The translations under genes were made by a program, and so were the position numbers. Below are positions 2,502 through 64,000 of a stretch of 64,000 nucleotides of DNA, piece by piece (positions within the stretch are counted from its first letter, which is position 1; each line of letters opens with the position of its first letter). Source of the DNA: Escherichia phage Mangalyan; the sequence record OR449013; one strand, written 5' to 3'. The notes beneath the pieces are model-generated. The model saw only the letters and a program-made list of their open reading frames with translations, made no database searches and had not been told where the DNA came from.

Positions 2502-2507
2502 AATACT

Positions 2508-2840
2508 TTAAAGTGCTTCCAAGGTGGATACTGATGGGTCGAACATGTTCAACCTTATCGGATCTACAACTTTTCCGCTTTTAGAGACGATGTTTTCTGC
2601 ATCCTCGTCCAGAGCCAGAACGTTAACATAAAACAATTCACTTTTCTCGCAAACCGGGTAGACAACCATGTTGCCAAATTCATCTTCGGCCTCATAAGTG
2701 TCTCCAGTCTCTGTGTAAATGAACCCGACAACCTCTACAAGAAGGGTGTTTTGCAACACCTCATTCTCGTAAAAGCCGATTTCGTCCATGAAACCGTTAA
2801 AATCCTCCCTGTCAGTAAACCCAAGGGTAAAAGTATTCAT
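2508..2840 (-). CDS. hypothetical acidic protein (possible fibre assembly factor)
   Basis: 110-aa acidic ORF immediately 3' of the 1479-aa fibre gene. Confidence 0.4.
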   Translation of the reverse strand: MNTFTLGFTDREDFNGFMDEIGFYENEVLQNTLLVEVVGFIYTETGDTYEAEDEFGNMVVYPVCEKSELFYVNVLALDEDAENIVSKSGKVVDPIRLNMFDPSVSTLEAL

Positions 2841-5800
2841 TATTCAACACTCTCCATCATAAGCTGGGTGTCTGTCAGTGCAGAGTTCCAAACTCTTATG
2901 TCCTTAATATGACCAAATAAGTGTCTTTCACCTGTCGCCGTTTGACCACCAATGCGGATGAAAGCGCCTCCTGCTAGGAATTCCCAAGAAGACTGCGTTT
3001 CCGTGCTCACCAGTCCGTTAGCAAAAGAGCAGGTTTTACCGTCATCTTTTATCCTGAACCCAATTTTCAATTTACGGGCTTTAGCCATCTCGTAAACACG
3101 TCTGTTTGACCCTCCAATATCACAGTATGGATAACCGTCCTTCGCAATATTTGTTGCAGAGCCAAACCCCATGATAAATGCAGCACCGGATTGATGACCC
3201 TCTGTATCAATAACCCTAGGGGCTGCGTTAGGAGCTTTGCCCCAGCCTCTCCAGTTGGCATCAACCGTAGCGGCGATAGTGAATGGTCTGGGCGCTAGGT
3301 TATCCGTCATTGGGAATTTACAAAGATCTGCCGCCCTGGTTACAGGTGAAGACCCTGTAGGGATAAACGAGGACTCACAAGATCCCAACTCAAACTGAGG
3401 TATTGCAACGTCAACCCAATCCCCTACGGCATGTTGAGAACTCTCCGGCGGGGCAATCTGGAACTGGCAACCGATATTCCTGTCAGAGGACACTGCCTCA
3501 AACGTAGCAACAACCCTTATCCAAGCAGGTCCGGCTGTTTGCCATCTCTCAGCTTTTACTTTAATTCTCCCCGCTGCAACACCTGTTGTTTTAACTTCAA
3601 GTGTTGACAGGTTAACATAAGCATCACCTTGAAATGTTGTGGTGGATCCGTCGTACATGTCGAATCTTATACGTAATCTCCGGTTCGCTTTACCTCCCCT
3701 TGCAATAATAGACCCAGTACAGAATTTCTCAGCACCTGTTACATCGGCACCTCTGGTGGCTGGAACTGTAGCAAGGTTTAACGCTGTTGTTTCCACACCG
3801 GATGCAGTGTTTACTGTAAATCTTGCACCTTTTGTGCCGTTGGTGTTTGTCACAGTACCACCAACAGTAATCTGTTGACTGGCTCCCCATTTACTAGGGT
3901 CTTCACTGTTAAGCATTAGGTTTGTCCTTTGCCCTTCAATAAGCAGACCATCTCTTTCAAAACGTGGTTGGTTTGCTTGTGCAACAGCCATAACACCACG
4001 CTTAGTGAAATAGGTTGCTGTAGAAGGTCTGGAGAAGACCATCTCACCTTCACCCAGTGCAGGTTTTAGGTTAGAGGTTAAAGGCAACCACAAGTCAGGC
4101 ATAACTGGAGCGGTGGTGTTTTCTGGGAAGCTTGTTCTCTTCCAAGGGCTCCAAGCCATTCCGCTGCCAAGGTTATTGTAATACCTTTCCCATGTTCCAC
4201 CAAGATACATTTTATATATCTGGATACAACCTGTTCCTTCGTTAGCGGAGTTTCTAAGAACGATCAGCGTACCAGCCATCTGCTGCCCTGGTGGGTAATT
4301 TCTTTCCGCTGTGGCGTTGGCATTTGCCTCTTGATGGTAAATCCCTTCACGATCTGCCTTGTAGTCGTTAAGGTCATTAGTTCCCAACCCTTGACCACGG
4401 TGCTGAATAACTTTGTTCCACGCTCTGTGGTTTCCCTGCTCTATGGAACGAGTGTACAGCTGATCTAAACGACCTGCCATCTGGAAAGCGTAGTTTCCAG
4501 AAAATGCCACAGACAACCCACCAACAACCATCGATCCTTCAGGTCCGTTGACATTGCCTGCCATTATTTTAGAAGGGTTGTTATTCCCGAACTGGTTGTT
4601 CCAGTCTGCACCTGTGTGGCATACAAAACCACCTGGTGCTGAGAAAGTACCATCCTTGTTGAAGTTGTAGAATCTATGAGCTGTGCCTACAACATCGCGA
4701 ACAATAACTTGACCCGCTTCCGGAGTAGATCTGAACTCTGCCTGACCTTTGAGACCAGCACCATTACCGCATTTAGAGGTAAACGTACCGTTAGTCAGAT
4801 CCTCTGTCCCATCGGATGCACACTGGAATCCTGCATTAGAGAATAACGCCTTTCTAGGACTGCCGTAGCACAAATAGTCAAGACCGTCTGCCCATAGCTC
4901 GACTTTTGGCATATTCATTTTGCTCATCACAGCATAGCGTTCAGCAGAACCTATATAGTGCCACTGTGTGCCGCCACCAGTGTAGAATCCTGAAGTACCT
5001 TTGAAGTCAACAATAGGTCTGGTATTGGTGTTGTTATCTCCAAGAATAGCAAGATTCAAATCTGCTGATTGAAGAGGTGCAACGAACTTAACCCCATCCT
5101 GATTGTTTGTTACAGAGCCGACTTGATAATCTTGCTCTCTGGTAAACACTTCGACAACATTTCTACTTGCGTATATGCTGACAGGGAAAGCACGAGCCTC
5201 TGCATAGAAAGCAACATACTCTTGTTTACCCCTTGTTGGAGCAACCATCCCAAGAAGTGCTTTTTCATTCTGGTAGAAATTTACTACCCCGTAGAAAGAG
5301 TCTCCCCTGTCCGTCCAGCCGCCAGTTCTATAGTGACACTGCAGGGTGGCACAGTTCATAGGGTCATTTCCAGATGAAGACCTGGTGACTATAGTAATAT
5401 CTGTACCTGTCGAATGGGCGTAATACGGATCTGTTCTAACGATGATTGGGTAGTATTTCCCATCTTCCATTCCTGCAGTTCTTGGCAGTGTTAAGAAGTC
5501 TTTTACACCTGCTGCTATAGGAACTTTGAACAGATTCTGAGCATCTGCTAAAGTTGTAGCCCCGGTGCCACCTGCGGCTTGAGGTAGAGGTTCCCACTTG
5601 GCCTTCCGGTTGTTATAAACACCCCATTCCAGAGTGCCGTTACCGGATTCGTCCATCTCACCATCCCAGATAACCATCTTGGCGGCTTTCTTGGACCCCC
5701 AGAAGCCTCTTTCTGCTCCTGAACTACGAATCCACTCTCCAAGTCCCCAGTTTGTCAGCTGACCAGTAAGATCCCCAACCTGCATGTATTTAGGACAGTC

Positions 5801-7279
5801 TAACACGCCGTCTTCGCGGAAACCTAAATATCTATGGGTTTCAGATCCTTTTGCACCTTTGTGCAGGTGGATTGTCAACCAAGCCTTATTGTCGTTTCTT
5901 ACCTCAGAGTAGATCCTATATCCATGCTCAAGGACACCGTCAGCGCTGTATTTGTCCCCGTTAACAATACCTGATGCTGACTTAACATCAGCAGAACTTT
6001 GAGACAGGTAAAGGTGCCCGAAGGTAGGGGAGTTTCTAGACCCGAGACCGATGTGCGATCTAAAGGTATCATCGTTACGAGGTCTGACCATTGGCTGCCA
6101 TGCAGTCCACTGGTTTGTGTTGGCCTGATAGGTTCTCAAATACCAAACATCCACGTTAGAGAATGGATAGTATTCCTGACGACAACCTGTACCGCCGTTA
6201 GCATTGTTCTGCCAAACAATCAAGTGACCAGCACCAGAACCTGCAGGGTAACCATTTGCCTCAGTTGCATAAGCAGTCATCGGCTGGTAGTATACACCAT
6301 CCTGATTACCAGTCAAGTTATTGATATTGAAATTTGACTCAAGAGCTGCACGTTGCTTATAGAAAGCCCCTAAGTTAATGCGTGCACCTGCGGCATCTCT
6401 GGCCCCCGTACCGCCTTGCTCTATAGCAAGAGGCTGCCACGAGGCTGTTTGTTGGTTCCACATGCCCCAACGGCCTGTTGCGTCAAGCTGCAAGTACCCT
6501 GCCGTGTTTAAATCATCTCCAGCACGGATAACTGTTCTTGTTGGGTTGTTTGCCTCCAGGCGTTTAAATTCATCACGAAGTGCTATTCTTTTTGTTGTTG
6601 CTACACCGTTGGTTACTGCGATGGTATACATGGCTCCGGATGTAGCGCCACGGAAAATACCATCAACAGTTGTAGTATCACGACGAGATACCACACCGTT
6701 CAGAAATTTTTCACCAGCTGCTACAGAAGGGTAGTTGGTGGTTCTTCCCTCTTCAATAACTGCAGGACCCACAAAGTTATCAAGGTGAATAACATCACCT
6801 ACAGTGTGCACCGTACCAAAATCTACACGCTGTGCAAGTGCTTTAGCATCGTTAGCTGTCTGAACAGTAACATCCATTACATCCTGGACAGACTGCCCTT
6901 CGGCTGTCATGATCATAGATGCGCCAATGGTAGATTCCAGCTCCTCCCTTAGGGACGGGTCAGTATATACCATCCATGCAGCGTCAGTAATCCCACCATC
7001 GGAGTACGGTGAAGATAGTGCAGGAACAGTGTGTGGAAATTCGCCTTTCCAACGCAGGTAGAGATCTTCCTCTTCGAAATAGGCAAAATCCATTGGGCCG
7101 TTTAACTTACCACCTTCCTTAAAGGAGATTACATGAGAAACAGTCCCATCCACATGGACAACATCGCCAATTTTTACACGACGGGTCAGGTCTGGTTGTT
7201 GAACAACCAGGTAATCATCCTCTGTCACTGCGGTAGTGGCAGGAAGAGATTCAATTCTGACAACTTTAATATCAGCCAT
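2840..7279 (-). CDS. tail fibre / tailspike protein (1479 aa)
   Basis: Very long ORF with AGGAGAAA SD; N-terminal ~100 aa shares a domain with the 222-aa protein at 9914-10582 (DDYLVVQQPDLTRRVKIGDVV vs DDFLVVNQTDGTRKAKIDDVV); Gly/Thr/Asn-rich body typical of fibres. Confidence 0.65.
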   Translation of the reverse strand: MADIKVVRIESLPATTAVTEDDYLVVQQPDLTRRVKIGDVVHVDGTVSHVISFKEGGKLNGPMDFAYFEEEDLYLRWKGEFPHTVPALSSPYSDGGITDAAWMVYTDPSLREELESTIGASMIMTAEGQSVQDVMDVTVQTANDAKALAQRVDFGTVHTVGDVIHLDNFVGPAVIEEGRTTNYPSVAAGEKFLNGVVSRRDTTTVDGIFRGATSGAMYTIAVTNGVATTKRIALRDEFKRLEANNPTRTVIRAGDDLNTAGYLQLDATGRWGMWNQQTASWQPLAIEQGGTGARDAAGARINLGAFYKQRAALESNFNINNLTGNQDGVYYQPMTAYATEANGYPAGSGAGHLIVWQNNANGGTGCRQEYYPFSNVDVWYLRTYQANTNQWTAWQPMVRPRNDDTFRSHIGLGSRNSPTFGHLYLSQSSADVKSASGIVNGDKYSADGVLEHGYRIYSEVRNDNKAWLTIHLHKGAKGSETHRYLGFREDGVLDCPKYMQVGDLTGQLTNWGLGEWIRSSGAERGFWGSKKAAKMVIWDGEMDESGNGTLEWGVYNNRKAKWEPLPQAAGGTGATTLADAQNLFKVPIAAGVKDFLTLPRTAGMEDGKYYPIIVRTDPYYAHSTGTDITIVTRSSSGNDPMNCATLQCHYRTGGWTDRGDSFYGVVNFYQNEKALLGMVAPTRGKQEYVAFYAEARAFPVSIYASRNVVEVFTREQDYQVGSVTNNQDGVKFVAPLQSADLNLAILGDNNTNTRPIVDFKGTSGFYTGGGTQWHYIGSAERYAVMSKMNMPKVELWADGLDYLCYGSPRKALFSNAGFQCASDGTEDLTNGTFTSKCGNGAGLKGQAEFRSTPEAGQVIVRDVVGTAHRFYNFNKDGTFSAPGGFVCHTGADWNNQFGNNNPSKIMAGNVNGPEGSMVVGGLSVAFSGNYAFQMAGRLDQLYTRSIEQGNHRAWNKVIQHRGQGLGTNDLNDYKADREGIYHQEANANATAERNYPPGQQMAGTLIVLRNSANEGTGCIQIYKMYLGGTWERYYNNLGSGMAWSPWKRTSFPENTTAPVMPDLWLPLTSNLKPALGEGEMVFSRPSTATYFTKRGVMAVAQANQPRFERDGLLIEGQRTNLMLNSEDPSKWGASQQITVGGTVTNTNGTKGARFTVNTASGVETTALNLATVPATRGADVTGAEKFCTGSIIARGGKANRRLRIRFDMYDGSTTTFQGDAYVNLSTLEVKTTGVAAGRIKVKAERWQTAGPAWIRVVATFEAVSSDRNIGCQFQIAPPESSQHAVGDWVDVAIPQFELGSCESSFIPTGSSPVTRAADLCKFPMTDNLAPRPFTIAATVDANWRGWGKAPNAAPRVIDTEGHQSGAAFIMGFGSATNIAKDGYPYCDIGGSNRRVYEMAKARKLKIGFRIKDDGKTCSFANGLVSTETQSSWEFLAGGAFIRIGGQTATGERHLFGHIKDIRVWNSALTDTQLMMESVE

Positions 7280-29411: not shown

Positions 29412-29806
29412 CGATCCTCCTGATTGATACTCTCATTATAAATATCTATAAGCTGATCAGGGAGTGTTGACTTATTACCTTCAGGTGATTGGAGGTAGAT
29501 AATCTGCTTTTCTCTACCTTCCCTCTCAGCTATATTTAATTTATCCTGCAGATCAGAAAGAGATTTTTCAAGGTTTTTAACCTCCTCTGCGTGGCCCATT
29601 TTAATTTTGTCTGCCTGCTTTTGTTGCTGATCAAGGATCCGTTCCCACTTTAACTCTGTTGCTGACACACCCTCTTGGTAGGCATCATTAAGCTTAGAGT
29701 TAAACCAATACACGGCCCCAAGATAAGCTGTACCTATAGCCGCTGCAAAAACTAAACCTTTTATGATCCCTCTATACCTACTCAGCCATGTTAAACCTGA
29801 AATCAT
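29408..29806 (-). CDS. putative i-spanin
   Basis: 132-aa ORF with N-terminal transmembrane segment then charged coiled-coil region; coupled to the lipoprotein gene. Confidence 0.5.
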   Translation of the reverse strand: MISGLTWLSRYRGIIKGLVFAAAIGTAYLGAVYWFNSKLNDAYQEGVSATELKWERILDQQQKQADKIKMGHAEEVKNLEKSLSDLQDKLNIAEREGREKQIIYLQSPEGNKSTLPDQLIDIYNESINQEDR

Positions 29807-30227: not shown

Positions 30228-30304
30228 TGGTCTCCACGGAGTGATTCGAACACTCGACCTCCTGATCCCAAATCAGGCGCTCTACCAAGCTGAGCTACGC
30301 GGAG
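30228..30304 (-). tRNA. tRNA-Pro (anticodon TGG)
   Basis: Cloverleaf folded by hand on minus strand: acceptor CTCCGCG/CGTGGAG, anticodon loop TTTGGGA, T-loop GTTCGAATC, encoded CCA. Confidence 0.8.
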
Positions 30305-30315
30305 TATTTACTATT

Positions 30316-30390
30316 TGGTGGCCCTGGGTGGAATTGAACCACCGTCTGGCGATTATGAGTCGCTTGCTTGAACCTTCCAGCTACAGGGCC
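30316..30390 (-). tRNA. tRNA-Met/fMet/Ile2 (anticodon CAT)
   Basis: Acceptor GGCCCTG/CAGGGCC, anticodon loop CTCATAA, T-loop TTCAATT, CCA encoded. Confidence 0.8.
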
Positions 30391-30391
30391 T

Positions 30392-30467
30392 TGGTGCTAA
30401 TGGCAGGACTTGAACCTGCAACCTATTGATTACAAATCAATTGCACTACCAATTGTGCTACATCAGC
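30392..30467 (-). tRNA. tRNA-Thr (anticodon TGT)
   Basis: Acceptor GCTGATG/CATTAGC, anticodon stem ATTGA/TCAAT with loop TTTGTAA, T-loop TTCAAGT, CCA encoded. Confidence 0.8.
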
Positions 30468-30472
30468 AAAAA

Positions 30473-30571
30473 GGTGCTAGGTGATGGAATCGAACCATCT
30501 ATGTATTCAACGACTACCTCGTCTATTTTCAGGATTAAAAATCCTCGCCCTTGCCAAAGGGCTTACCTAGC
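30473..30571 (-). ncRNA. atypical 99-nt tRNA-like gene (Lys-type UUU anticodon loop, ~30-nt variable region)
   Basis: Acceptor GCTAGGT/ACCTAGC, D-arm GCCC-TTTGGCAA-GGGC, anticodon loop TTTTTAA, canonical T-arm GATGG-TTCGATT-CCATC, but ~30 nt lie between anticodon stem and T-stem. Confidence 0.45.
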
Positions 30572-30669
30572 TCAGTATGTTGACCATGTTGCTAGTCGGC
30601 GATGACGACTGTAACATTTGATAATCCGGTTCTGCTTCCGGCTTTCGCTTAATTACAAGGTCAACAATG

Positions 30670-30760
30670 TGGCGGAGAGTAATGGAATCGAACCATCATC
30701 GAGTCATCCTCAATGGGACGGTTTTCAAGACCGCTTGAGCACCATTGCTCCCTACTCTCC
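30670..30760 (-). tRNA. tRNA-Ser (anticodon TGA), class II
   Basis: Acceptor GGAGAGT/ACTCTCC, anticodon loop CTTGAAA, long variable arm, T-loop GGTTCGATTCC, CCA encoded. Confidence 0.8.
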
Positions 30761-30874
30761 TTTATAAATTATACTGATAATGACACTGATTTTCGAGCAG
30801 TTAGTGACTAGTATAAACGACGATAAATATCAATGCCATTATCTGTATTATTTATGCATCTAAAAATATAAATT

Positions 30875-30961
30875 TGGTGGGGAGTGGTGGAGTCGAACCA
30901 CCCGAGTCGCAATGACAATAGATTTACAGTCTACACCGCTACCTCTACGGGATAACTCCCC
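30875..30961 (-). tRNA. tRNA-Tyr (anticodon GTA), class II
   Basis: Acceptor GGGGAGT/ACTCCCC, anticodon stem GTAGA/TCTAT with loop CTGTAAA, long variable arm, T-loop GGTTCGACTCC. Confidence 0.8.
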
Positions 30962-30965
30962 AATT

Positions 30966-31040
30966 TGGCACCCCGTACTGGACTCGAACCAGTGTCAACG
31001 GCTTAGAAGGCCGCTGCTTTATCCACTAAGCTAACAGGGC
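30966..31040 (-). tRNA. tRNA-Arg (anticodon TCT)
   Basis: Acceptor GCCCTGT/ACGGGGT, anticodon stem GCGGC/GCCGT with loop CTTCTAA, T-loop GGTTCGAGTCC. Confidence 0.8.
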
Positions 31041-44395: not shown

Positions 44396-44555
44396 CTGGA
44401 AAGGTGTTGTTGCAGATCGCTGCGTTACTGAGCCTAATTTATGGTTTGGCTCTACAGAGTATCATAAAGAAGAGCAGTGGTTGATGCGTGCCTTCGATGT
44501 AGACAAGGGCGAATATCGTGACTTCGCTTTAAAAGACATTCTTCAGTTTTACTAA
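44334..44555 (+). CDS. hypothetical protein
   Basis: 73-aa ORF with GAGGAGAG SD. Confidence 0.35.
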   Translation: MGMKKVFNPCDSVLIRMKYRNWKGVVADRCVTEPNLWFGSTEYHKEEQWLMRAFDVDKGEYRDFALKDILQFY

Positions 44556-44567
44556 GGAATCTTAACG

Positions 44568-45551
44568 ATGATGACAAAGTTAACTCTTGAGCAAATTTTA
44601 ACACTAAAGCAACAAGGATACACTAATAGACAAATTGCTCGTGAATTTTTAGGCCGTGAGTCACGTGAGAGCTGGATCCGACTACAGCTTAAACGTGCAC
44701 AAGAGAATATGTCAGAGATTGTAGGAGAAGCAACGGAGCGCTTCCTTGAAGAGCACAAAGGTGCTAAAGTTTGGGTGTATGATACAGAGACATCCCCAAC
44801 AAACGGCTGGTTCTTTGGGCACTATAAGACCAACATTCAAACCTGTGGTATTGAAGTTATGCCCTATATGCTAACTTTCGCAGGTAAGTGGTTAGACAGC
44901 TCTAGTGTGGTTGACTGCGCTCTTCCAGATTACAAAATGTGGGATGAGGATATTCACAATGATCTCGAATTGATTCAGGATTTGTGGTATTATCTGGATA
45001 AATGCGATGTCGCAGTAGCCCACAATTCAGGTTTTGACTGCGGGTGGGCCAACCAACGATTTGCATTTCACGGGTTGCCTCCAACAAGCCCCTACAAAGA
45101 GGTTGACACCCTTAAAATGATCAAGAAGGCATTCCGTTTGAATGCAAACACTTTAGAGTATGCATGCAAATACTTCCAACTGGCCCGACAGAAACTGATT
45201 GACCACACATTTGAAATGTGGATCAAGTGTGTCCATGGCGATCTTGAGGCATTTAAACAGATGCGGGAGTATAATGTTGGTGATATCCTGTCTCTGGAAG
45301 GCTTGTATTTGCTGGCTCGCCCGTTTGCTAAGCAGCACCCAAACATGTCATTGTACTACCAGGACGAGGAGCCAAAGGTTCGTTGCCCACGCTGTGGTGG
45401 AGAACACCTTCACGAGGAAGAAGCTTTGGCGTATACTCAGCTGAGTGCATTTAAAACATACCGCTGCGAAGGTTGTGGATCTGTTGTTCGTGATCGTAAC
45501 AACATCCGTACCAGAGAAGAGATGAAAAACACCCTGATTCAGATAATCTAA
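44568..45551 (+). CDS. DnaQ-like 3'-5' exonuclease with N-terminal HTH and C-terminal zinc ribbon
   Basis: Exo motifs VYDTETS, HNSGFD, YNVGD; HTH-like TNRQIAREF; CPRCGG...CEGCG. Confidence 0.5.
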   Translation: MMTKLTLEQILTLKQQGYTNRQIAREFLGRESRESWIRLQLKRAQENMSEIVGEATERFLEEHKGAKVWVYDTETSPTNGWFFGHYKTNIQTCGIEVMPYMLTFAGKWLDSSSVVDCALPDYKMWDEDIHNDLELIQDLWYYLDKCDVAVAHNSGFDCGWANQRFAFHGLPPTSPYKEVDTLKMIKKAFRLNANTLEYACKYFQLARQKLIDHTFEMWIKCVHGDLEAFKQMREYNVGDILSLEGLYLLARPFAKQHPNMSLYYQDEEPKVRCPRCGGEHLHEEEALAYTQLSAFKTYRCEGCGSVVRDRNNIRTREEMKNTLIQII

Positions 45552-45558
45552 CAAGTAG

Positions 45559-45587
45559 AGGGAGGCTTGCGCCTCCCTTTTCCTTTT
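45559..45587 (+). terminator. rho-independent terminator
   Basis: AGGGAGGC-TTGC-GCCTCCCT hairpin followed by TTTTCCTTTT. Confidence 0.6.
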
Positions 45588-45596
45588 GGAGGCACT

Positions 45597-46415
45597 TTGA
45601 GCAAGAAAGAGTCTAACGACAAGTATTACACAAACCCAGGGTATGCAGAATATCTTGTTGGTAAAGTAAAAGATAAGTATGGGAATTGTGCATACGTTGA
45701 GCCTTCTGCTGGAAGAGGTTCTTTTTCAAAACTATTTTCAGAGATACTGTCGTACGATTTAGTACCAGATCCTGAATTTGAAGGACCAACACCGTGCATT
45801 CAGGCAAACTTCTTGGAGATGCACCCCAAGGCAGATGTCTTCATAGGTAACCCACCATTTGGCAAGAATTCATCTTTAGCTTGCAAATTCTTTAACCATT
45901 GTGCATCATTGCTAGAGCTTGGCGGGGCTATAGCCTTCATCTTGCCACGGACATTTGAAAAAATATTTTTTTCAAACAAACTGGACATGTCTATGCACCT
46001 TGTCTACAGCGAAAGGTGCCCTAAGAACTCGTTTTTACTTAATGGCAAACCTTATGACGTGCCATGTGTTTTCCAAATTTGGGAGAAAAAGGCGTGCAAT
46101 AGGGATCCTGTAGAGATTGGAGAGAATAAGTTATTTTCTTTTAGCACACCGGATGACTACGACTTCTGTGTAAGACGTGTTGGGTATAACGCTGGAAAAG
46201 TATTGGGTGATGATGATCCAAAATCTGAAGAATCTACATATTTCATAAAATCTTTAGTTGACGGTGTTGACAGAGTGTTTGCTGAATGCTATTCTTCTTT
46301 TCAAGAAGAAGCAGGTAAGACTGCTGGAATGAAGAGTATAGGCAAGAAAGAACTACAATACATTTTGGAGACCCGGTATGATCAAAAGCATAGACTTGAC
46401 CAAAGAACTTGCTGA
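45597..46415 (+). CDS. N6-adenine DNA methyltransferase
   Basis: Motif I EPSAGRGSF and motif IV NPPF; TTG start at 45597 after GGAGG preferred over track start inside the terminator hairpin. Confidence 0.6.
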   Translation: MSKKESNDKYYTNPGYAEYLVGKVKDKYGNCAYVEPSAGRGSFSKLFSEILSYDLVPDPEFEGPTPCIQANFLEMHPKADVFIGNPPFGKNSSLACKFFNHCASLLELGGAIAFILPRTFEKIFFSNKLDMSMHLVYSERCPKNSFLLNGKPYDVPCVFQIWEKKACNRDPVEIGENKLFSFSTPDDYDFCVRRVGYNAGKVLGDDDPKSEESTYFIKSLVDGVDRVFAECYSSFQEEAGKTAGMKSIGKKELQYILETRYDQKHRLDQRTC

Positions 46416-46836
46416 TGCAAAAGCTTTTGGTGAGACAGCGGTACAAAGAGGCCAGGCTATGGGACTGGCACTACCTTTCGTCTTAAAAGAGCACTTTACA
46501 GATTTTCAACTTATCAAGGGTGATAAGGGAATTCTTATCCTGGAGCATAAGTTGAGTAAGAAACGCTATAAAGTTGTTTTTAATTCTAAAGCTCCAACAA
46601 AACTGGGATTCAGAACTTACAATCTTAACCCATCCTACACTAAGGGTGTAGGAAGAGTAGAACAACAGCATTTCAGTGCTAGAGCTTCTTTAGCCCCCTT
46701 GATGCTAAATTTTTCAGGGGTGGCTTTAGGATACCTTGACAAGAAAAGAGTTCTTCATGTCCGTTTCACAGACTTTGTAACGCTTTTAGCTAACAATGAG
46801 GTAGATGAAAAGGGACGTGTAAAAACAAACTTCTAA
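46378..46836 (+). CDS. hypothetical protein
   Basis: 152-aa ORF. Confidence 0.4.
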   Translation: MIKSIDLTKELADAKAFGETAVQRGQAMGLALPFVLKEHFTDFQLIKGDKGILILEHKLSKKRYKVVFNSKAPTKLGFRTYNLNPSYTKGVGRVEQQHFSARASLAPLMLNFSGVALGYLDKKRVLHVRFTDFVTLLANNEVDEKGRVKTNF

Positions 46837-46851
46837 TAACGCATAGTATGA

Positions 46852-47055
46852 TTGGAGACCGCAATGACACTAAAGTTAACAGTTCCAGACAGCTTTTCAG
46901 AAAACTTTATCCCAGAAATGATGGATAAGATGCGATCATTGCTTGATCAGATTGAAGAGGCTGTTTGGGAAGACGATGCTGTAGTGGCTAACGAGCTGGT
47001 AGATAAGTGTAAAAGTATTATTGATGCAGTTGAAGAATACCACGGAGGTTTTTGA
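46852..47055 (+). CDS. hypothetical acidic protein
   Basis: 67-aa ORF. Confidence 0.35.
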   Translation: METAMTLKLTVPDSFSENFIPEMMDKMRSLLDQIEEAVWEDDAVVANELVDKCKSIIDAVEEYHGGF

Positions 47056-47669
47056 TGGATATTATTGTTCTTAACGCCCCACCTAGTAGTGGTAAGGATC
47101 ACATTGCAGATCTCTTGTTGGAAGCTATTCCTAACTCACACCATCGTGAGGTTAAGGAGATGCTCTTCAGCGTGGCAATTAAGGCAGCTGGTGTAACTCC
47201 TCAACTCTGGAATGCACTTTATGACCGCCACTACAAAGAAGAGCCTTGCCCTTTCTTAATGATAGACGGTAAGCATGTTTCTCCGCGAGAGTGGATGATC
47301 CATTGTAGTGAAAATCTGATTAAACCTATCTTTGGTGAAGATGCTTTCGGTAAGGCCGCAGTCACATCCTTGAAGAAAGATTTCCCTAAAGGTAAAGGGG
47401 TTGTTGTTTACTCCGATGGTGGATTCAAAGAGGAGCTGGCATGCCTTAGTGAGTACGCATACAGCACAGGTGGAGATCTGTTGTTGTTCCGTATTCACCG
47501 TGTCGGATATGACTGGGGAAATGATTCCAGAACCTATCTAAGTCTGGAAAAGAACGGAATAAAAGGGATTGAGTTCGATGTTGTAAACCCTGAAGGTGCA
47601 CCTTGGGAGTGTGCATCGGAGATTGTGTGCAAGTATATTGATGCTAAAGAGGCCCAAGAAGAATGTTAA
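47052..47669 (+). CDS. P-loop nucleotide kinase (dNMP kinase-like)
   Basis: N-terminal P-loop NAPPSSGKDHIA resembling phage deoxynucleotide monophosphate kinases. Confidence 0.5.
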   Translation: MMDIIVLNAPPSSGKDHIADLLLEAIPNSHHREVKEMLFSVAIKAAGVTPQLWNALYDRHYKEEPCPFLMIDGKHVSPREWMIHCSENLIKPIFGEDAFGKAAVTSLKKDFPKGKGVVVYSDGGFKEELACLSEYAYSTGGDLLLFRIHRVGYDWGNDSRTYLSLEKNGIKGIEFDVVNPEGAPWECASEIVCKYIDAKEAQEEC

Positions 47670-48256
47670 TCGGAATTGATGTAGATTTGACACTGGTAGA
47701 TTCAGGAACAGCATGGTGGGAGTGGTTGGAGCGTTTGTATGGTCCAGCCAGTAAGACAGTCGCTAAACCTTCTAATGGACTGATGTATTACGATCTGTCA
47801 AAGTATTGGCCTGATCGCCCCAAAGAAAACATCATAGGGCCTTTTGATTTCTGGAGTGACCCATTCCTCTACGACTTTCTTAAGCCTGAAGAGGGGGCTA
47901 TTGAGGTTATGAAAGATTTGGTGGCTCGTGGTCACAAGCTTGCATTTATCTCGGTATGCAAGAAAGGTCACCTTGCATCTAAATCAAGGTTCTTAAAGCG
48001 TTGGACCAGTGATTTTATGGATCTGGACGATCACACCCAGGGTCACGGCTTCTACGCCACACATTTCAAAGGAAATGTGGCTGTAGATGTTATAATTGAC
48101 GACAGGCATGAATACCTTAACCAATTCGCTTCACGACCTGAAGTTATTAAAATCCTAAAAGATACGCCTTATGAGCAATTCGAGGAGTTAAAGGTCAGTG
48201 TTGACTATACCGCCAATAGCTGGTATAAAATAGGAAAGTTTTTAGAAGGTATTTGA
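47663..48256 (+). CDS. HAD-superfamily phosphatase (putative nucleotidase)
   Basis: Motif I IGIDVDLTLVD (DxDxT). Confidence 0.45.
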   Translation: MLIGIDVDLTLVDSGTAWWEWLERLYGPASKTVAKPSNGLMYYDLSKYWPDRPKENIIGPFDFWSDPFLYDFLKPEEGAIEVMKDLVARGHKLAFISVCKKGHLASKSRFLKRWTSDFMDLDDHTQGHGFYATHFKGNVAVDVIIDDRHEYLNQFASRPEVIKILKDTPYEQFEELKVSVDYTANSWYKIGKFLEGI

Positions 48257-59284: not shown

Positions 59285-59631
59285 CACAAGAACGTATCGA
59301 TTTGGCTAATAAGTTTGTAGATCTCATTTTGCCACGGTTAGTTACTCAACATGCAGACGCTATTTCTACTAATCTTGATGGCTTACGCCTAATGCTGAAT
59401 CGCACAGATGACCCTCGCATTCGGGCTGATTTAGAAGCCTCTGCCAACAAACTGGAAAAGTTCTTGCAAGTAGATACGCAAGAAGCCTTACACAAGATTA
59501 TGGTGGAAGGTTTCTCTAAAGAATTTACCATTAAAGAGCTTAAGGAGCTGATCCACCAAGAAGAGATGAATATCCGAGTTCAGGCTGTTGCAAGCAGCAT
59601 GGAAGCGGCTATTGAAAAACTGTTGCAGTAA
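59281..59631 (+). CDS. hypothetical protein
   Basis: 116-aa ORF, GTG start. Confidence 0.4.
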   Translation: MTQERIDLANKFVDLILPRLVTQHADAISTNLDGLRLMLNRTDDPRIRADLEASANKLEKFLQVDTQEALHKIMVEGFSKEFTIKELKELIHQEEMNIRVQAVASSMEAAIEKLLQ

Positions 59632-59669
59632 AAGTACTTGGCACATCTCAATCTGAAAGGAGTCCCAAC

Positions 59670-60458
59670 ATGGGTCGAGCTAAAGAAACAAAACGCATGC
59701 GTGATGAAGCTAGAGAGGCTCGCAAATCTGATCGCCTGCGCAAGGCTGCTGAGAAATTTGCTGACGAAAGAGAGCACACCGCTCCAGCTCTCCGACCAAT
59801 GAATAAGAAGCAGCAAAAGTATCTTGATTATCTAGGGTCACGTAAGATTATCATTGTAAACGGTGTGTTTGGATCCGGTAAGACATTCATGGCATCTGCA
59901 TATGCAGGTGATCTTCTGCGTAAGAACGAGATTGATAAGATCATTGTTGCACGTCCTTACGTTCAGACAGGAAAGACTTCAGGATTTAAACCTGGAAATG
60001 CAATGCAGAAACTGTGGCCCTATCTTCGAAGCATGATGGACACGATTTGTCGTCGTGTTGGCAAAGGTGCTTTTGCCGCAATGCTGGGAGACGGTCAGAA
60101 CAGTCGTATCGAGATTTGTGAAGTTGAAAGCATTCGTGGTCGTAGTTTCGATGAGCGATGCTTTGTCCTGATTGACGAGGCACAGCAAACTAACCCTGAA
60201 GAAATGTTGTCAATTATCACAAGGATCTCTGATCAGGCCACCCTTGTAATCATGGGCGATAATAGCCAACGTGACATCCCTGGTAAATCTGGACTTGCAT
60301 GGGTGACGGATTTCTTTACTCGTCATCCAGATCCTGAGGTTGGAATGATCAGCTTTGATAGTCCAGACGATGTCGTTCGTTCCGGATTGGGTCGTCAGAT
60401 TGCACTCAATCTTATTGAGGATCGTGCAAATCATATTTGGACCCCTGTTTCCGAGTAA
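59670..60458 (+). CDS. phoH: PhoH-like ATPase
   Basis: Walker A GVFGSGKT, Walker B LIDEAQ; 262 aa. Confidence 0.8.
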   Translation: MGRAKETKRMRDEAREARKSDRLRKAAEKFADEREHTAPALRPMNKKQQKYLDYLGSRKIIIVNGVFGSGKTFMASAYAGDLLRKNEIDKIIVARPYVQTGKTSGFKPGNAMQKLWPYLRSMMDTICRRVGKGAFAAMLGDGQNSRIEICEVESIRGRSFDERCFVLIDEAQQTNPEEMLSIITRISDQATLVIMGDNSQRDIPGKSGLAWVTDFFTRHPDPEVGMISFDSPDDVVRSGLGRQIALNLIEDRANHIWTPVSE

Positions 60459-60502
60459 CACAGAAGGGTGGTTATTCCACCCTTAGATATCTAAAACAGT
60501 TG

Positions 60503-60531
60503 TTGACAAACAGGTAAGCTTTAGATATTAT
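60503..60531 (+). promoter_or_regulatory. sigma70-like promoter (TTGACA-17-TATTAT)
   Basis: TTGACAAAC...TATTATTATCGG upstream of the 60557 gene. Confidence 0.6.
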
Positions 60532-60556
60532 TATCGGACAAGGAGAAGGAGATAGT

Positions 60557-60868
60557 ATGGCTACAGTACAAGAGAAACTGAATAAAATATACTGCCTGTT
60601 TGTCTATAACGGCGAGACAATTCTGGCATATAAAGGATCCAAGAATGTATGGATCAAGGACAGTGGTGGTAATATAATCAACTTAGCGTTGCTACGTGAG
60701 CGCCGACACAGATTCTTTATCGAGTCTCGGATTATTGAAAGCAGCACCTGCTACAGAACAGGCGATAAAGTAATTGTTGACAATGATACGTGGTATGTGG
60801 TAGACTGGCAATCACTGAGCTGTGATGCTTCTGACAATCGTAAGTACTCTATAGTGATTGCTAAATAA
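60557..60868 (+). CDS. hypothetical protein
   Basis: 103-aa ORF with AAGGAGAAGGAG SD. Confidence 0.4.
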   Translation: MATVQEKLNKIYCLFVYNGETILAYKGSKNVWIKDSGGNIINLALLRERRHRFFIESRIIESSTCYRTGDKVIVDNDTWYVVDWQSLSCDASDNRKYSIVIAK

Positions 60869-60928
60869 AGGTAAATGTGAATCAGGTTTAAATAAATAGC
60901 TTTCAACTTCCAATATTAAGGATCTCTC

Positions 60929-61978
60929 ATGAATTTAACACCTCGCAGCACCATGGTACACGGCATGAAAGAAAAACAGAACGGTTTCGAACCTATGAGT
61001 AATAAAATGTTTGGTATGCCGGGGGGTATTATGGAAACATATAGCTACCCAACACCTGTTGTTGACCACGTTCTTTATATCGACGATTTGGAAGACTTAC
61101 AAGATCATATGTCTCGTCTGCAGACGATCCGTATGGCTCAGCCGGAAGAAAGCATTCGGGTGATCATCAATAGCCCAGGGGGCTGCGTGCACATTGCAAT
61201 GGCTTATTTGCAGGCATTCCGCGAGTCTCAGGCAAGCGTTGTTGCACACGCTGAAGGGATGTGCTGCTCGGCAGGAACAATCTTATGGCTGGGCTGCAAA
61301 GAACGAACTGTGGCTCCGGACACAGAATTTATGTTCCACTACTATCAAGGTGGCACCTATGGTAACGGTGTGAACATGAATACCCAGATCAACTACTGGA
61401 AGAAACGTTTTGAACGCCTGATCGAAAAATACTACGGTGGGGTGTTAACAGAAGATGAGATCGCATCCATCACAGCTGGCGGTGAAGTGTGGTTAGATGG
61501 AGAAGAACTGGCATCTAGAACTGGTGCTATCATTCTGGACGATGAAAACATTCAGCGCATTCAGAATGGACAGAAACCGAAAAAGCTTTTGGCAAAAAGT
61601 GATGAAGAAGGTGTGCTAGGCGAAGCAGGCCTGCCAGAGATTCACCAATGCACATCTCTGGACGAGCTGGTTCATGCTGTTGAGTCTGCAAAAGCAAATG
61701 GTATGAAAGATGATGTTCACACTGTGTTCCTGAATCTGCAGATGGAAAGTGGCGAGACCGTCCGGATCGCCCTGGGTGAAATTACTTCAGAAGATCTGCA
61801 GCGATTCTCTGTCGTCGAACTTCAGGATATTCTGTCTCAATTGAAGACTACTCTGAACGGCGGTGAAGAGGTTAAGGTGAAAGACAAGACCCGCAAGCGT
61901 CTGATGGACAATATCATTAAAACAGCAAAAGAGCTCAATGAAAAAATCCTGGGTGCAGGAATTGTCGAAGAAGCTTAA
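60929..61978 (+). CDS. ClpP-like serine protease (S14 family) with C-terminal extension
   Basis: INSPGGCV, catalytic-Ser context MCCSAGT and His context MFHYY match the ClpP family; ~130-aa helical C-terminal extension. Confidence 0.6.
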   Translation: MNLTPRSTMVHGMKEKQNGFEPMSNKMFGMPGGIMETYSYPTPVVDHVLYIDDLEDLQDHMSRLQTIRMAQPEESIRVIINSPGGCVHIAMAYLQAFRESQASVVAHAEGMCCSAGTILWLGCKERTVAPDTEFMFHYYQGGTYGNGVNMNTQINYWKKRFERLIEKYYGGVLTEDEIASITAGGEVWLDGEELASRTGAIILDDENIQRIQNGQKPKKLLAKSDEEGVLGEAGLPEIHQCTSLDELVHAVESAKANGMKDDVHTVFLNLQMESGETVRIALGEITSEDLQRFSVVELQDILSQLKTTLNGGEEVKVKDKTRKRLMDNIIKTAKELNEKILGAGIVEEA

Positions 61979-61991
61979 ACATTAATTCTAA

Positions 61992-62013
61992 AGCCCTCTT
62001 CGGAGGGCTTTTA
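61992..62013 (+). terminator. rho-independent terminator
   Basis: AGCCCTC-TTCG-GAGGGCT followed by TTTTAT. Confidence 0.6.
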
Positions 62014-62029
62014 TGATCTGGAGATTTGC

Positions 62030-62563
62030 ATGACTTGTGCTAGAAAACCTGATGAACAACGTAACGCCTACGATGAGTATGTGACACCGGAGTGGTGTGC
62101 AGAAGGGCTGTATGACCTTATTCCGTTCCCAGAAGACTGGACCTACTTAGAGCCTTGCAGGAATAGTGCCTCAGGTGTGTTCTACTCCCGTATGCCGTTA
62201 GGATCTGCATGGGGAGAAATACAAGAAGGTGTTGACTATCTGAATACAGAATACAACCATGTTGACTGTATTATCACCAACCCACCATACAGCCTGGCTC
62301 GTGAGTTTGTAGACAAGGCGTTGAAAGATGCTGACGTAGTTATTATGCTTTTGCGTCTTAATTTTCTGGAAAGCAAAGCCAGATTTGAATGGTGGCTTGA
62401 TAATGCACCTACTACTGTGATCACAATATCTAAGCGTCCATCATTTCAATCAAACGGCAGAACTGACGGGCAAGCATATGCATATTTTGTGTGGGATAAG
62501 AAAAACCGTTTAGACTTGCCGCCGTTTATGTGGTTGGCACCCCCAGAGGTAGACCTGAAATGA
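62030..62563 (+). CDS. small N6-adenine DNA methyltransferase (phage Dam-like)
   Basis: Catalytic motif IITNPPYS; N-terminal YDEYVTPEW; 177 aa. Confidence 0.6.
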   Translation: MTCARKPDEQRNAYDEYVTPEWCAEGLYDLIPFPEDWTYLEPCRNSASGVFYSRMPLGSAWGEIQEGVDYLNTEYNHVDCIITNPPYSLAREFVDKALKDADVVIMLLRLNFLESKARFEWWLDNAPTTVITISKRPSFQSNGRTDGQAYAYFVWDKKNRLDLPPFMWLAPPEVDLK

Positions 62564-62844
62564 AAATGAGTGCTAAGGACAAATTACACCAGCTAGCGCT
62601 AAAACGCCCTGTAACGCTCCCTGACGAGCTTAACTCCATTTATGATGCGATTGTAGGGGAGATACAAAATAAAGCGTTAGCAGGCTTTCTGGGGTGCGGA
62701 TTTTCGATAAATCTACCCTCGCATCTCTCAGATTACTTCCCGCACATTGTTGGAGATTTAAGGGCAGGAGGTCTGCAGGTAGATGTTGTTGGCATCTCCC
62801 CAGAGAAAAATAATACGGTTGCCTACTTGACAGTAACCTGGTAG
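62560..62844 (+). CDS. hypothetical protein
   Basis: ATG 62560 overlapping the methyltransferase stop (ATGA) with GAGGT SD. Confidence 0.35.
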   Translation: MKMSAKDKLHQLALKRPVTLPDELNSIYDAIVGEIQNKALAGFLGCGFSINLPSHLSDYFPHIVGDLRAGGLQVDVVGISPEKNNTVAYLTVTW

Positions 62845-62880
62845 TTGTGTATTGTTGTTTTCAACAAGAGGGGGTCATTT

Positions 62881-63120
62881 ATGTACAAGTCATTTTCAAT
62901 CTACTCAAGACAGGCGAAACACTACACAGAGATCCTGATCACTCAGAAAAAATCTGTGGAAGGTGAGTGGGAATATCACCATAAAATGTTGCGTCCAGAC
63001 TGGGTTTTTGATAGACTTATTGCTATGATCCCTCTCGGAGAAGTATACCCTCTGACAGCCCATCGCGATGCTTGGGATTTAATTGATTACATAGATTCAT
63101 TTAAGGAGCCTAGATTATGA
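62881..63120 (+). CDS. hypothetical protein
   Basis: ATG 62881 with AGAGGGGG SD. Confidence 0.35.
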   Translation: MYKSFSIYSRQAKHYTEILITQKKSVEGEWEYHHKMLRPDWVFDRLIAMIPLGEVYPLTAHRDAWDLIDYIDSFKEPRL

Positions 63121-63515
63121 AGATTGAGATTACTAAAGAAGGTAAGAAAGTGTCCGGCAACTATGCAACAGTAATTCGGGATTTAATGTTTGAAGCCACC
63201 AAGATCGGTACATCTAAAGTTGGTCAAACTGTTAGTGTGAAAAGTAATATCTCCACAGGAGAGAAGGTATTCATTGTGGTCAAAGGGCAGGATCCCGTGG
63301 AAGGAACAGTGGGCCGAGGTGGCTACCTGTGCATTTCTGAAGAGCCGCGTATGTTAGTGGCTGACGCTACTATGGGTGGGAAACGTGTGTGCGAGGCGGA
63401 TGAGGTAATGATTATCCAACCTGTTGATCCAGATGACCCAGCAACTTGGGTGGTAGGAAATGAAATCTTCTCTTTAGAAGAGTTATCCTTCCCAGCACCG
63501 CGCTCTGTTCAGTAA
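63117..63515 (+). CDS. hypothetical protein
   Basis: 132-aa ORF coupled to upstream gene. Confidence 0.4.
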   Translation: MKIEITKEGKKVSGNYATVIRDLMFEATKIGTSKVGQTVSVKSNISTGEKVFIVVKGQDPVEGTVGRGGYLCISEEPRMLVADATMGGKRVCEADEVMIIQPVDPDDPATWVVGNEIFSLEELSFPAPRSVQ

Positions 63516-63554
63516 TAATTTATCTTACCAGGGACGGTAGAAGCAGGAGGTAGC

Positions 63555-63788
63555 ATGAAAGTTAAATTTCTTACAGATTTAGGGTACCCTTCCTTGGTTG
63601 ACTGCGTTGGTAAAATTGTGGAAGCAAAACGGCTATCTGCAAACGAGAATGTTGTCCTGGTTAAGGGAAAGGATTTACTAGCTGCAGGTGCAGAGTCTGG
63701 CAGGATCTCTCCTGACTATACATATTACCTATCTTTAAGTAATCTGCCAGAACGAGGCGGCAAAGGCCTTGAAGTTGTGGAGGAGTGA
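63555..63788 (+). CDS. hypothetical protein
   Basis: 77-aa ORF with AGGAGG SD. Confidence 0.4.
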   Translation: MKVKFLTDLGYPSLVDCVGKIVEAKRLSANENVVLVKGKDLLAAGAESGRISPDYTYYLSLSNLPERGGKGLEVVEE

Positions 63789-63794
63789 CAGGTA

Positions 63795-64000
63795 TGCTTC
63801 TTATTAACTGGGAAGACCTCTATGGGGACAAAGACCCTGTTGCGTTTGTTGATCGTAGATGGAGATATACTGAAGAACAACTGGCTGCAAAAAATTTAAC
63901 TGCGAAACGCAGAAAGATTATCCAGTGCAAGTACAAATACGCACAGTTTGCTGCAAAAGTGTCTCCACAAATCGAGAGCTTTGTACTTAAATTGTATGAC
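63795..64000 (+). CDS. hypothetical protein (5' part; runs off window end)
   Basis: ATG at 63795 after GGAGGAG; frame open to the window end. Confidence 0.35.

Follow-up and report, generated by a model that had tools for sequence, protein, structure and literature searches.

What two genes for adenine methyltransferases, with no restriction endonuclease gene beside either, do for a phage is the question raised by 64,000 nucleotides of DNA from Escherichia phage Mangalyan (OR449013), the whole of which is referred to here as the window. The explanation we favour, with a probability of roughly 0.7, is that this rV5-like phage carries a GATC enzyme (ORF B) and a GTAC enzyme (ORF A) and is protected by them from restriction. 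The two solitary SAM-dependent DNA adenine-N6 methyltransferases would modify the replicating phage DNA, so that nearly all copies of two 4-bp palindromes, GATC and GTAC, are methylated in the virion. ORF B, a minimal enzyme, would methylate GATC, and ORF A, whose catalytic core is followed by a presumed recognition domain at the C-terminus, would methylate GTAC. The presumed benefit is blanket protection from m6A-blocked restriction enzymes with GATC- or GTAC-containing sites; the cost would be that the activity of ORF B triggers retron abortive-infection systems.

A reading made from the sequence alone had described a 272-residue NPPF-type and a 177-residue NPPY-type methyltransferase in the window. 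Both are indeed there, as judged from the open reading frames, motifs, homologues and confident folds. The features of the longer gene are as follows.

45597..46415, + strand: ORF A, 272-aa gamma-type N6-adenine DNA methyltransferase (NPPF), from the ORF list, PADLOC and structure
45557..45588, + strand: terminator-like hairpin upstream of ORF A (stem of 9 bp, tetraloop, U-rich tail)
45588..45592, + strand: Shine-Dalgarno sequence GGAGG of ORF A, read from the sequence
45699..45725, + strand: motif I of ORF A, EPSAGRGSF, aa 35–43, the SAM-binding loop, from the family alignment
45849..45860, + strand: motif IV of ORF A, NPPF, aa 85–88, the catalytic loop, from the family alignment
46104..46412, + strand: C-terminal domain of ORF A, approximately aa 170–272, conserved in the alignment (A1)
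46378..46836, + strand: 152-aa ORF 3' of ORF A (phrog_9938), with a 38-nt overlap with ORF A

ORF A starts with the TTG at 45597, located 4 nt past GGAGG, and its product contains GNPPFG. The ORF list gives a longer frame of 282 aa (45567–46415, + strand). We rejected its TTG start at 45567, as that codon falls within a strong hairpin (45557–45580) and has no ribosome-binding site; 45597 is the better start. In the rV5 record the gene is rv5_gp096 (819 nt, "putative DNA N6-adenine methyltransferase"), and the coordinates and length match. ORF A sits in a replication and nucleotide-metabolism module, flanked by a DnaQ-like exonuclease gene on one side and the 152-aa ORF on the other; the hairpin (−20.5 kcal/mol, z = −3.0) is located between the exonuclease gene and ORF A. 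The motifs follow in the order YYTNP, EPSAGRGSF and NPPF. Among the 34 homologues aligned, E35, P36, S37, A38, G39, G41 and F43 are invariant in motif I, as are G84, N85, P86, P87, F88 and G89 around motif IV. The C-terminal domain has the conserved blocks RRVG..AGKV and TAG..S..K.EL; it falls within the PADLOC MTase_II profiles and outside the alignments to the cores of M.TaqI and Ta1320, and is presumed to recognise the target sequence. No match to ORF A was found in Pfam or in NCBIfam; PF26055 is precomputed on its homologues.

The features of the shorter gene, ORF B, are listed in the same way.

62030..62563, + strand: ORF B, 177-aa minimal gamma-type N6-adenine DNA methyltransferase (NPPY), from phrog_799, the M.TaqI profile and the Bas51 orthologue
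61990..62015, + strand: terminator-like hairpin upstream of ORF B (stem of 9 bp, UUCG loop, U tail)
62234..62278, + strand: codons D69, D79 and T83 of ORF B, the sites of the Bas51 loss-of-function/retron-escape mutations D69G, D79G and T83P
62279..62290, + strand: motif IV of ORF B, NPPY, aa 84–87, from the family alignment
62530..62844, + strand: small ORF 3' of ORF B (phrog_12158)

The ORF B product contains TNPPYS and matches phrog_799 (E = 8e-67) as well as the M.TaqI profile. It is a nearly bare catalytic domain without a separate recognition domain, and its motif order is YVTP, EPCRNSASG, NPPY. Members of the rV5 clade of ORF B have a degenerate GxG (CRNSASG) in motif I; at motif IV, T83, N84, P85 and P86 are invariant in the 32 homologues aligned. 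A ClpP-like protease gene lies on one side of ORF B and the small ORF on the other. The hairpin between the protease gene and ORF B (−14.7 kcal/mol, z = −2.7) was missed by a simple terminator scan, and GGAG is found at 62020–62023, between this hairpin and ORF B. Many phage records annotate the gene as a DNA or N6-adenine methyltransferase.

ORF A and ORF B are the only ORFs of at least 90 aa in the window with a [DNS]PP[YFWH] motif. Homologues number in the hundreds for each, and motifs I and IV are among the columns that do not vary (34 and 32 sequences aligned, respectively). Both family alignments have N-P-P without exception. The aromatic residue that follows is always F among the ORF A homologues, and the ORF B homologues have either Y or F. 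Neither protein has lost any of the residues that are invariant in its family. The AlphaFold models (pLDDT 92.7 for ORF A, 88.6 for ORF B) have Rossmann-like class I methyltransferase folds, which Foldseek matches to M.TaqI, CamA, M.BseCI, HsdM, TrmN and DIMT1 (E 1e-7 to 1e-4); both models also superpose on PacII and PH1948/Ta1320. With either protein as a single query sequence, a search of solved structures gave no match.

The two enzymes had been called unrelated, a description that does not survive comparison of the families. Both match phrog_799, "DNA methyltransferase", and share the same gamma-type motif order, and profile–profile comparison aligns them over about 144 columns (97.4% probability, E = 1e-11). 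The common blocks run from D.YYT(N/P) through EP(S/C)xGxG, an acidic residue and NPP(F/Y) to SLA..F; in both families a strand-rich segment follows, ending in VFQIWEK or YAWFVWDK. By these measures ORF A and ORF B are distantly homologous. They are still separate families, and the C-terminal domain of about 100 aa is present in ORF A alone.

The statement that no restriction endonuclease is adjacent held up: searched against Pfam, PHROGs and PADLOC, none of the ORFs that flank ORF A and ORF B matches a restriction enzyme. In the window both genes are orphans. Judged as a member of a type II methyltransferase family, ORF A has the profile match, and the adjacent cognate restriction enzyme is absent from the window.

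The DNA of the window is 97–99.5% identical to that of rV5-like Vequintavirus phages of E. coli. Megablast with both gene regions retrieved about 120 phage records (90–99.5% identity), nearly all of them rV5-like Vequintavirus, and both ORF A and ORF B are found in about 120 records. The comparison that carries most of the argument is with Bas51 (Escherichia phage WalterGehring, MZ501111), a Vequintavirus of the BASEL collection, onto which the window maps at 29443–1 and 140659–106657 (blastn). The Bas51 counterpart of ORF A is bas51_0200 (267/272 aa identical), and that of ORF B is bas51_0176, also 177 aa (176/177 identical, 99.4%), which has the same neighbours (ClpP-like protease, PhoH-like ATPase) and differs by the single conservative substitution V174A. 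Measured against Bas51, both genes are under purifying selection (pN/pS 0.08 in ORF A, 0.01 in ORF B). The count of two enzymes applies to the window; genome-wide it fails, as Bas51 has two more methyltransferase genes outside the matched span. Both genes are real but already annotated: the ORF B type has been characterised experimentally, and the ORF A type is known by annotation only.

The target of ORF B can be read from its Bas51 counterpart. bas51_0176 is the GATC m6A methyltransferase of Bas51 virion DNA and triggers the retrons Asa1 and Squ1 (PMC12548924, PLoS Biology 2025). The engineered mutations D69G, D79G and T83P in bas51_0176 abolish retron defence, and the protein is toxic if expressed alone (PMC12548924). 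Nanopore 6mA calling of Bas51 virion DNA, reported without an unmethylated control, yielded GATC as its logo, and hardly any GATC methylation was left in T83P (PMC12548924). The methylated adenines in the wild type number 1405 at GATC, 509 at GTAC and 576 elsewhere, and in T83P 35, 511 and 349, respectively (Fig 4f source data, PMC12548924). MZ501111 contains 703 GATC and 258 GTAC sites by our count, corresponding to 1406 and 516 adenines, which puts the methylation of Bas51 virion DNA at 1405/1406 for GATC and 509/516 for GTAC (both about 99%). Adenine methylation of virion DNA, whose absence had been named as the observation to look for against the sequence-only reading, is thus present in the published nanopore data for the near-identical Bas51, and it has two different specificities.

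Positions 69, 79 and 83 are D, D and T in ORF B, and Q, A and I in ORF A. ORF B is 176/177 identical to bas51_0176 and keeps D69, D79 and T83, which makes it orthologous to a GATC methyltransferase defined by experiment; methylation of GATC, demonstrated in the 99.4%-identical Bas51 protein, can be expected of ORF B too. The drop from 1405 to 35 methylated GATC adenines in T83P shows that host Dam lags behind phage DNA synthesis and cannot substitute for the phage enzyme; a phage "wanting" methylated GATC therefore needs an enzyme of its own. The rV5 genome paper has nothing on methylation or restriction digests.

The GTAC methylation has a different origin. Its count is unchanged in T83P (509 versus 511 of 516 adenines), and it is therefore independent of ORF B. 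PMC12548924 leaves it without gene attribution. GTAC is also depleted, in the window (O/E 0.55, z = −6.4) as in Bas51 (O/E 0.59, z = −8.7), and among 4-bp palindromes only CTAG is more so; GATC is not depleted. A GTAC methyltransferase is not known from E. coli K-12 or B strains, and the enzyme must therefore be phage-encoded. Exactly three Bas51 ORFs have a (D/N)PP(F/Y) motif: the orthologues of ORF A and ORF B, and bas51_0070. The two further methyltransferase genes of Bas51 (L007 14456–15781 and 17042–17806) are bas51_0070 and a gene annotated as a Dcm-like C5 methyltransferase, and both fall outside the Bas51 span matched by the window. The Dcm-like gene has no match in Pfam or PADLOC.

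The family context of ORF A points to a type II system. ORF A matches the PADLOC MTase_II profiles PDLC03255/03256 with E = 2.1e-33 (aa 28–253) and E = 5.2e-24 (aa 3–256); ORF B has only a marginal match, to another MTase_II profile (E = 1e-3). A conserved ORF of about 215 aa lies directly 3' of the ORF A homologue, on the same strand, in 20 of 80 bacterial loci, and likewise in a metagenomic locus (L004). L004 was the only informative one of the three metagenomic contexts of ORF A homologues that were looked at. Examples of this partner ORF are given below; the other copies are in 19 loci among L009–L088.

L004 6788–7471: partner ORF of about 215 aa
L017 4805–5404: partner ORF of about 215 aa, Poseidonibacter ostreae

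All 18 copies of the partner that were tested match PADLOC REase_II (PDLC03460; best E 5e-15). The protein has a PD-(D/E)XK-like motif, D...(S/T)IK, and the conserved blocks NQxHGKxFE, PTSIKS and LNPKIDSKxQRRLQCS. It has no solved relative, no Pfam family and no informative name in a collection of 5.8 billion proteins. The match of ORF A to the PADLOC profiles over its full length, together with the restriction partner in bacteria, assigns ORF A to the modification component of a genuine type II system. Phage ORF A would accordingly be a captured solitary copy of a type II restriction–modification methyltransferase. Small restriction enzymes with a PD-(D/E)XK-like motif typically cut palindromes. 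Elimination among the candidate genes and this family context together make ORF A the probable GTAC methyltransferase. The depletion of GTAC in phage and bacterial flanks lends weak support to this assignment: in the bacterial flanks GTAC is the second most depleted palindrome, at 0.72 with the restriction partner and 0.81 without it, a contrast too small to decide. We also lean, somewhat less firmly, towards the wider proposal that ORF A is GTAC-specific, that its bacterial relatives and the partner of about 215 aa would form an unannotated GTAC-cutting type II system, and that the phage both avoids and methylates GTAC.

Two other assignments have to be weighed against ORF A as the GTAC enzyme. 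GTAC methylation could be made by the orthologue of bas51_0070, with ORF A having another DNA target or being silent in the laboratory. bas51_0070 (441 aa) is a type III Mod-like protein that matches MTase_III over its full length (E = 1.5e-205), with a Mod-like LELTWIGKN at its start and no annotated Res partner nearby. Its DPPF and FGGSG motifs are intact, the terminator-like hairpin just before ORF A might limit the expression of ORF A, and the 349 "other" methylated adenines would be left for another target. Type III Mod enzymes, however, methylate one strand of short asymmetric sites. Such a target suits the residual sites better than it does a 4-bp palindrome methylated in full. A number near 349 agrees with a 5-bp motif methylated on one strand, given the 281 kb to which the two strands add up, and these sites may belong to the Mod-like enzyme. 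As the ORF A family, moreover, pairs with a small PD-(D/E)XK-like restriction enzyme, we regard bas51_0070 as an unlikely source of the GTAC methylation. That ORF A acts on rRNA or tRNA adenines and is not a DNA enzyme is highly improbable. The top match of ORF A by sequence among solved structures is to the Ta1320/METTL5 group of RNA m6A enzymes (E = 1.8e-4), TrmN, PH1948 and DIMT1 are among its fold matches, and some homologues are named "predicted RNA methylase" in JGI or, in phage BP9, "RNA methylase". These matches, however, are confined to the common catalytic core. The METTL5/Ta1320 match is limited to positions 4–111 of the ORF A family profile and leaves the C-terminal domain uncovered, whereas the PADLOC type II DNA methyltransferase profiles span the full protein. 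M.TaqI, CamA, M.BseCI and HsdM score equally well, bacterial homologues are paired with restriction enzymes, and the phage-encoded methylation of GTAC in DNA needs some enzyme. ORF A thus stays our candidate for that enzyme.

Members of the M.TaqI-type gamma class have motifs in the order X, I, IV followed by a C-terminal recognition region, as does ORF A. Sequence identity to M.TaqI is below 20%, the profile alignment covers M.TaqI residues 21–111, and the folds match. With 272 aa, ORF A is shorter than the M.TaqI-type comparators (421 and 331 aa), and ORF B has no recognition domain. M.HpyAXII, a small GTAC enzyme, has its catalytic asparagine at N87, and NPP(Y/F) lies near residue 85 in both ORF A and ORF B; M.HpyAXII, M.CviQI and M.PabI were compared by published architecture and not by sequence. 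ORF B shares the m6A product at GATC with canonical Dam (E. coli Dam and T4 Dam, alpha class) and the solitary phage-borne life-style with canonical and small phage Dam, but has the gamma-type motif order in place of the alpha class of canonical Dam. In Pfam at E ≤ 0.01, ORF B retrieves only EcoRI_methylase and PF05869, both below the cut-off, and no alpha-class Dam (D12-type). The scores against the curated cut-offs are 19.2 versus 28.1 bits for PF05869 and 16.1 versus 97.05 for TIGR01712. ORF B would thus work like Dam, but by sequence it lies outside the canonical Dam and small phage Dam families.

A protective role for the methylation is plausible. m6A at GATC blocks MboI/DpnII-type enzymes, and m6A at GTAC blocks KpnI- and PabI-type enzymes as well as RsaI. 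In the BASEL phenotyping, Vequintavirinae were "exceptionally susceptible" to restriction–modification and very sensitive to all type II and type III systems tested; in one plating experiment Bas51 had an EOP of about 1e-4 on EcoRI and gave no plaques on EcoRV. No system in the BASEL panel cuts GATC or GTAC, so this sensitivity limits the claim to a narrow protection and does not refute it. The sole demonstrated biological consequence of the ORF B type is the triggering of the retrons Asa1 and Squ1, which is a cost.

The methylation could alternatively have a mainly internal, epigenetic role, as a packaging mark, in the timing of replication, or in the evasion of MutH/mismatch repair on under-methylated GATC; this concerns function and is compatible with any of the assignments discussed above. 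Phage P1 requires Dam methylation at its pac site, the module in which ORF A is located is one of replication and nucleotide metabolism, and host Dam lags behind phage DNA synthesis (35/1406 in the mutant). Mutants of the ORF B type also have modestly lower titres on a host without retrons, but they are viable, at about 1e10 pfu/ml (PMC12548924). There is no evidence of a methylation-dependent packaging site, and the GTAC depletion points to past selection by restriction. We therefore consider it quite improbable that the epigenetic role is the main one and retain protection from restriction as the preferred function.

What is new is modest: GTAC is proposed as the target of ORF A, and a family of bacterial restriction partners has been recognised. 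If ORF A is the GTAC enzyme, this uncharacterised family of restriction enzymes would probably have the same specificity. For phage therapy and engineering, phages of this kind would arrive fully methylated at GATC and GTAC, which predicts the host restriction enzymes that they evade; they should also be open to attack by methyl-dependent enzymes, DpnI among them. Such methylation is consistent with the restriction of Bas51 by retrons.

Each of the two genes is located directly 3' of a GC-rich hairpin and has its own Shine-Dalgarno sequence. No sigma-70-like promoter was found between hairpin and start codon for either gene. This arrangement suggests expression by read-through of the terminator or from a promoter that was not recognised.

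Some observations on the phage and its relatives were made in passing. About 20 GenBank records of "Campylobacter phage" (MG0656xx) are 96–99.5% identical to E. coli rV5-like phages, and one of these records, C5, matches the window best (regions 44500–47700 and 59600–64000 searched). The host labels of the MG0656xx records look doubtful. Window positions 2507–4291 have no blastn match in Bas51; they lie inside an ORF of 1479 aa (2840–7279, − strand) that corresponds to a lateral tail fibre gene, and the mismatch is probably receptor-binding variation. A tRNA cluster at 30228–31040 (− strand) contains Pro, Met, Thr, Ser, Tyr and Arg. Within it, a 99-nt tRNA-like gene (30473–30571) is assigned a 4-base anticodon (atcc) by ARAGORN, and at the corresponding place the Bas51 cluster has a 97-nt gene annotated as tRNA-Lys.
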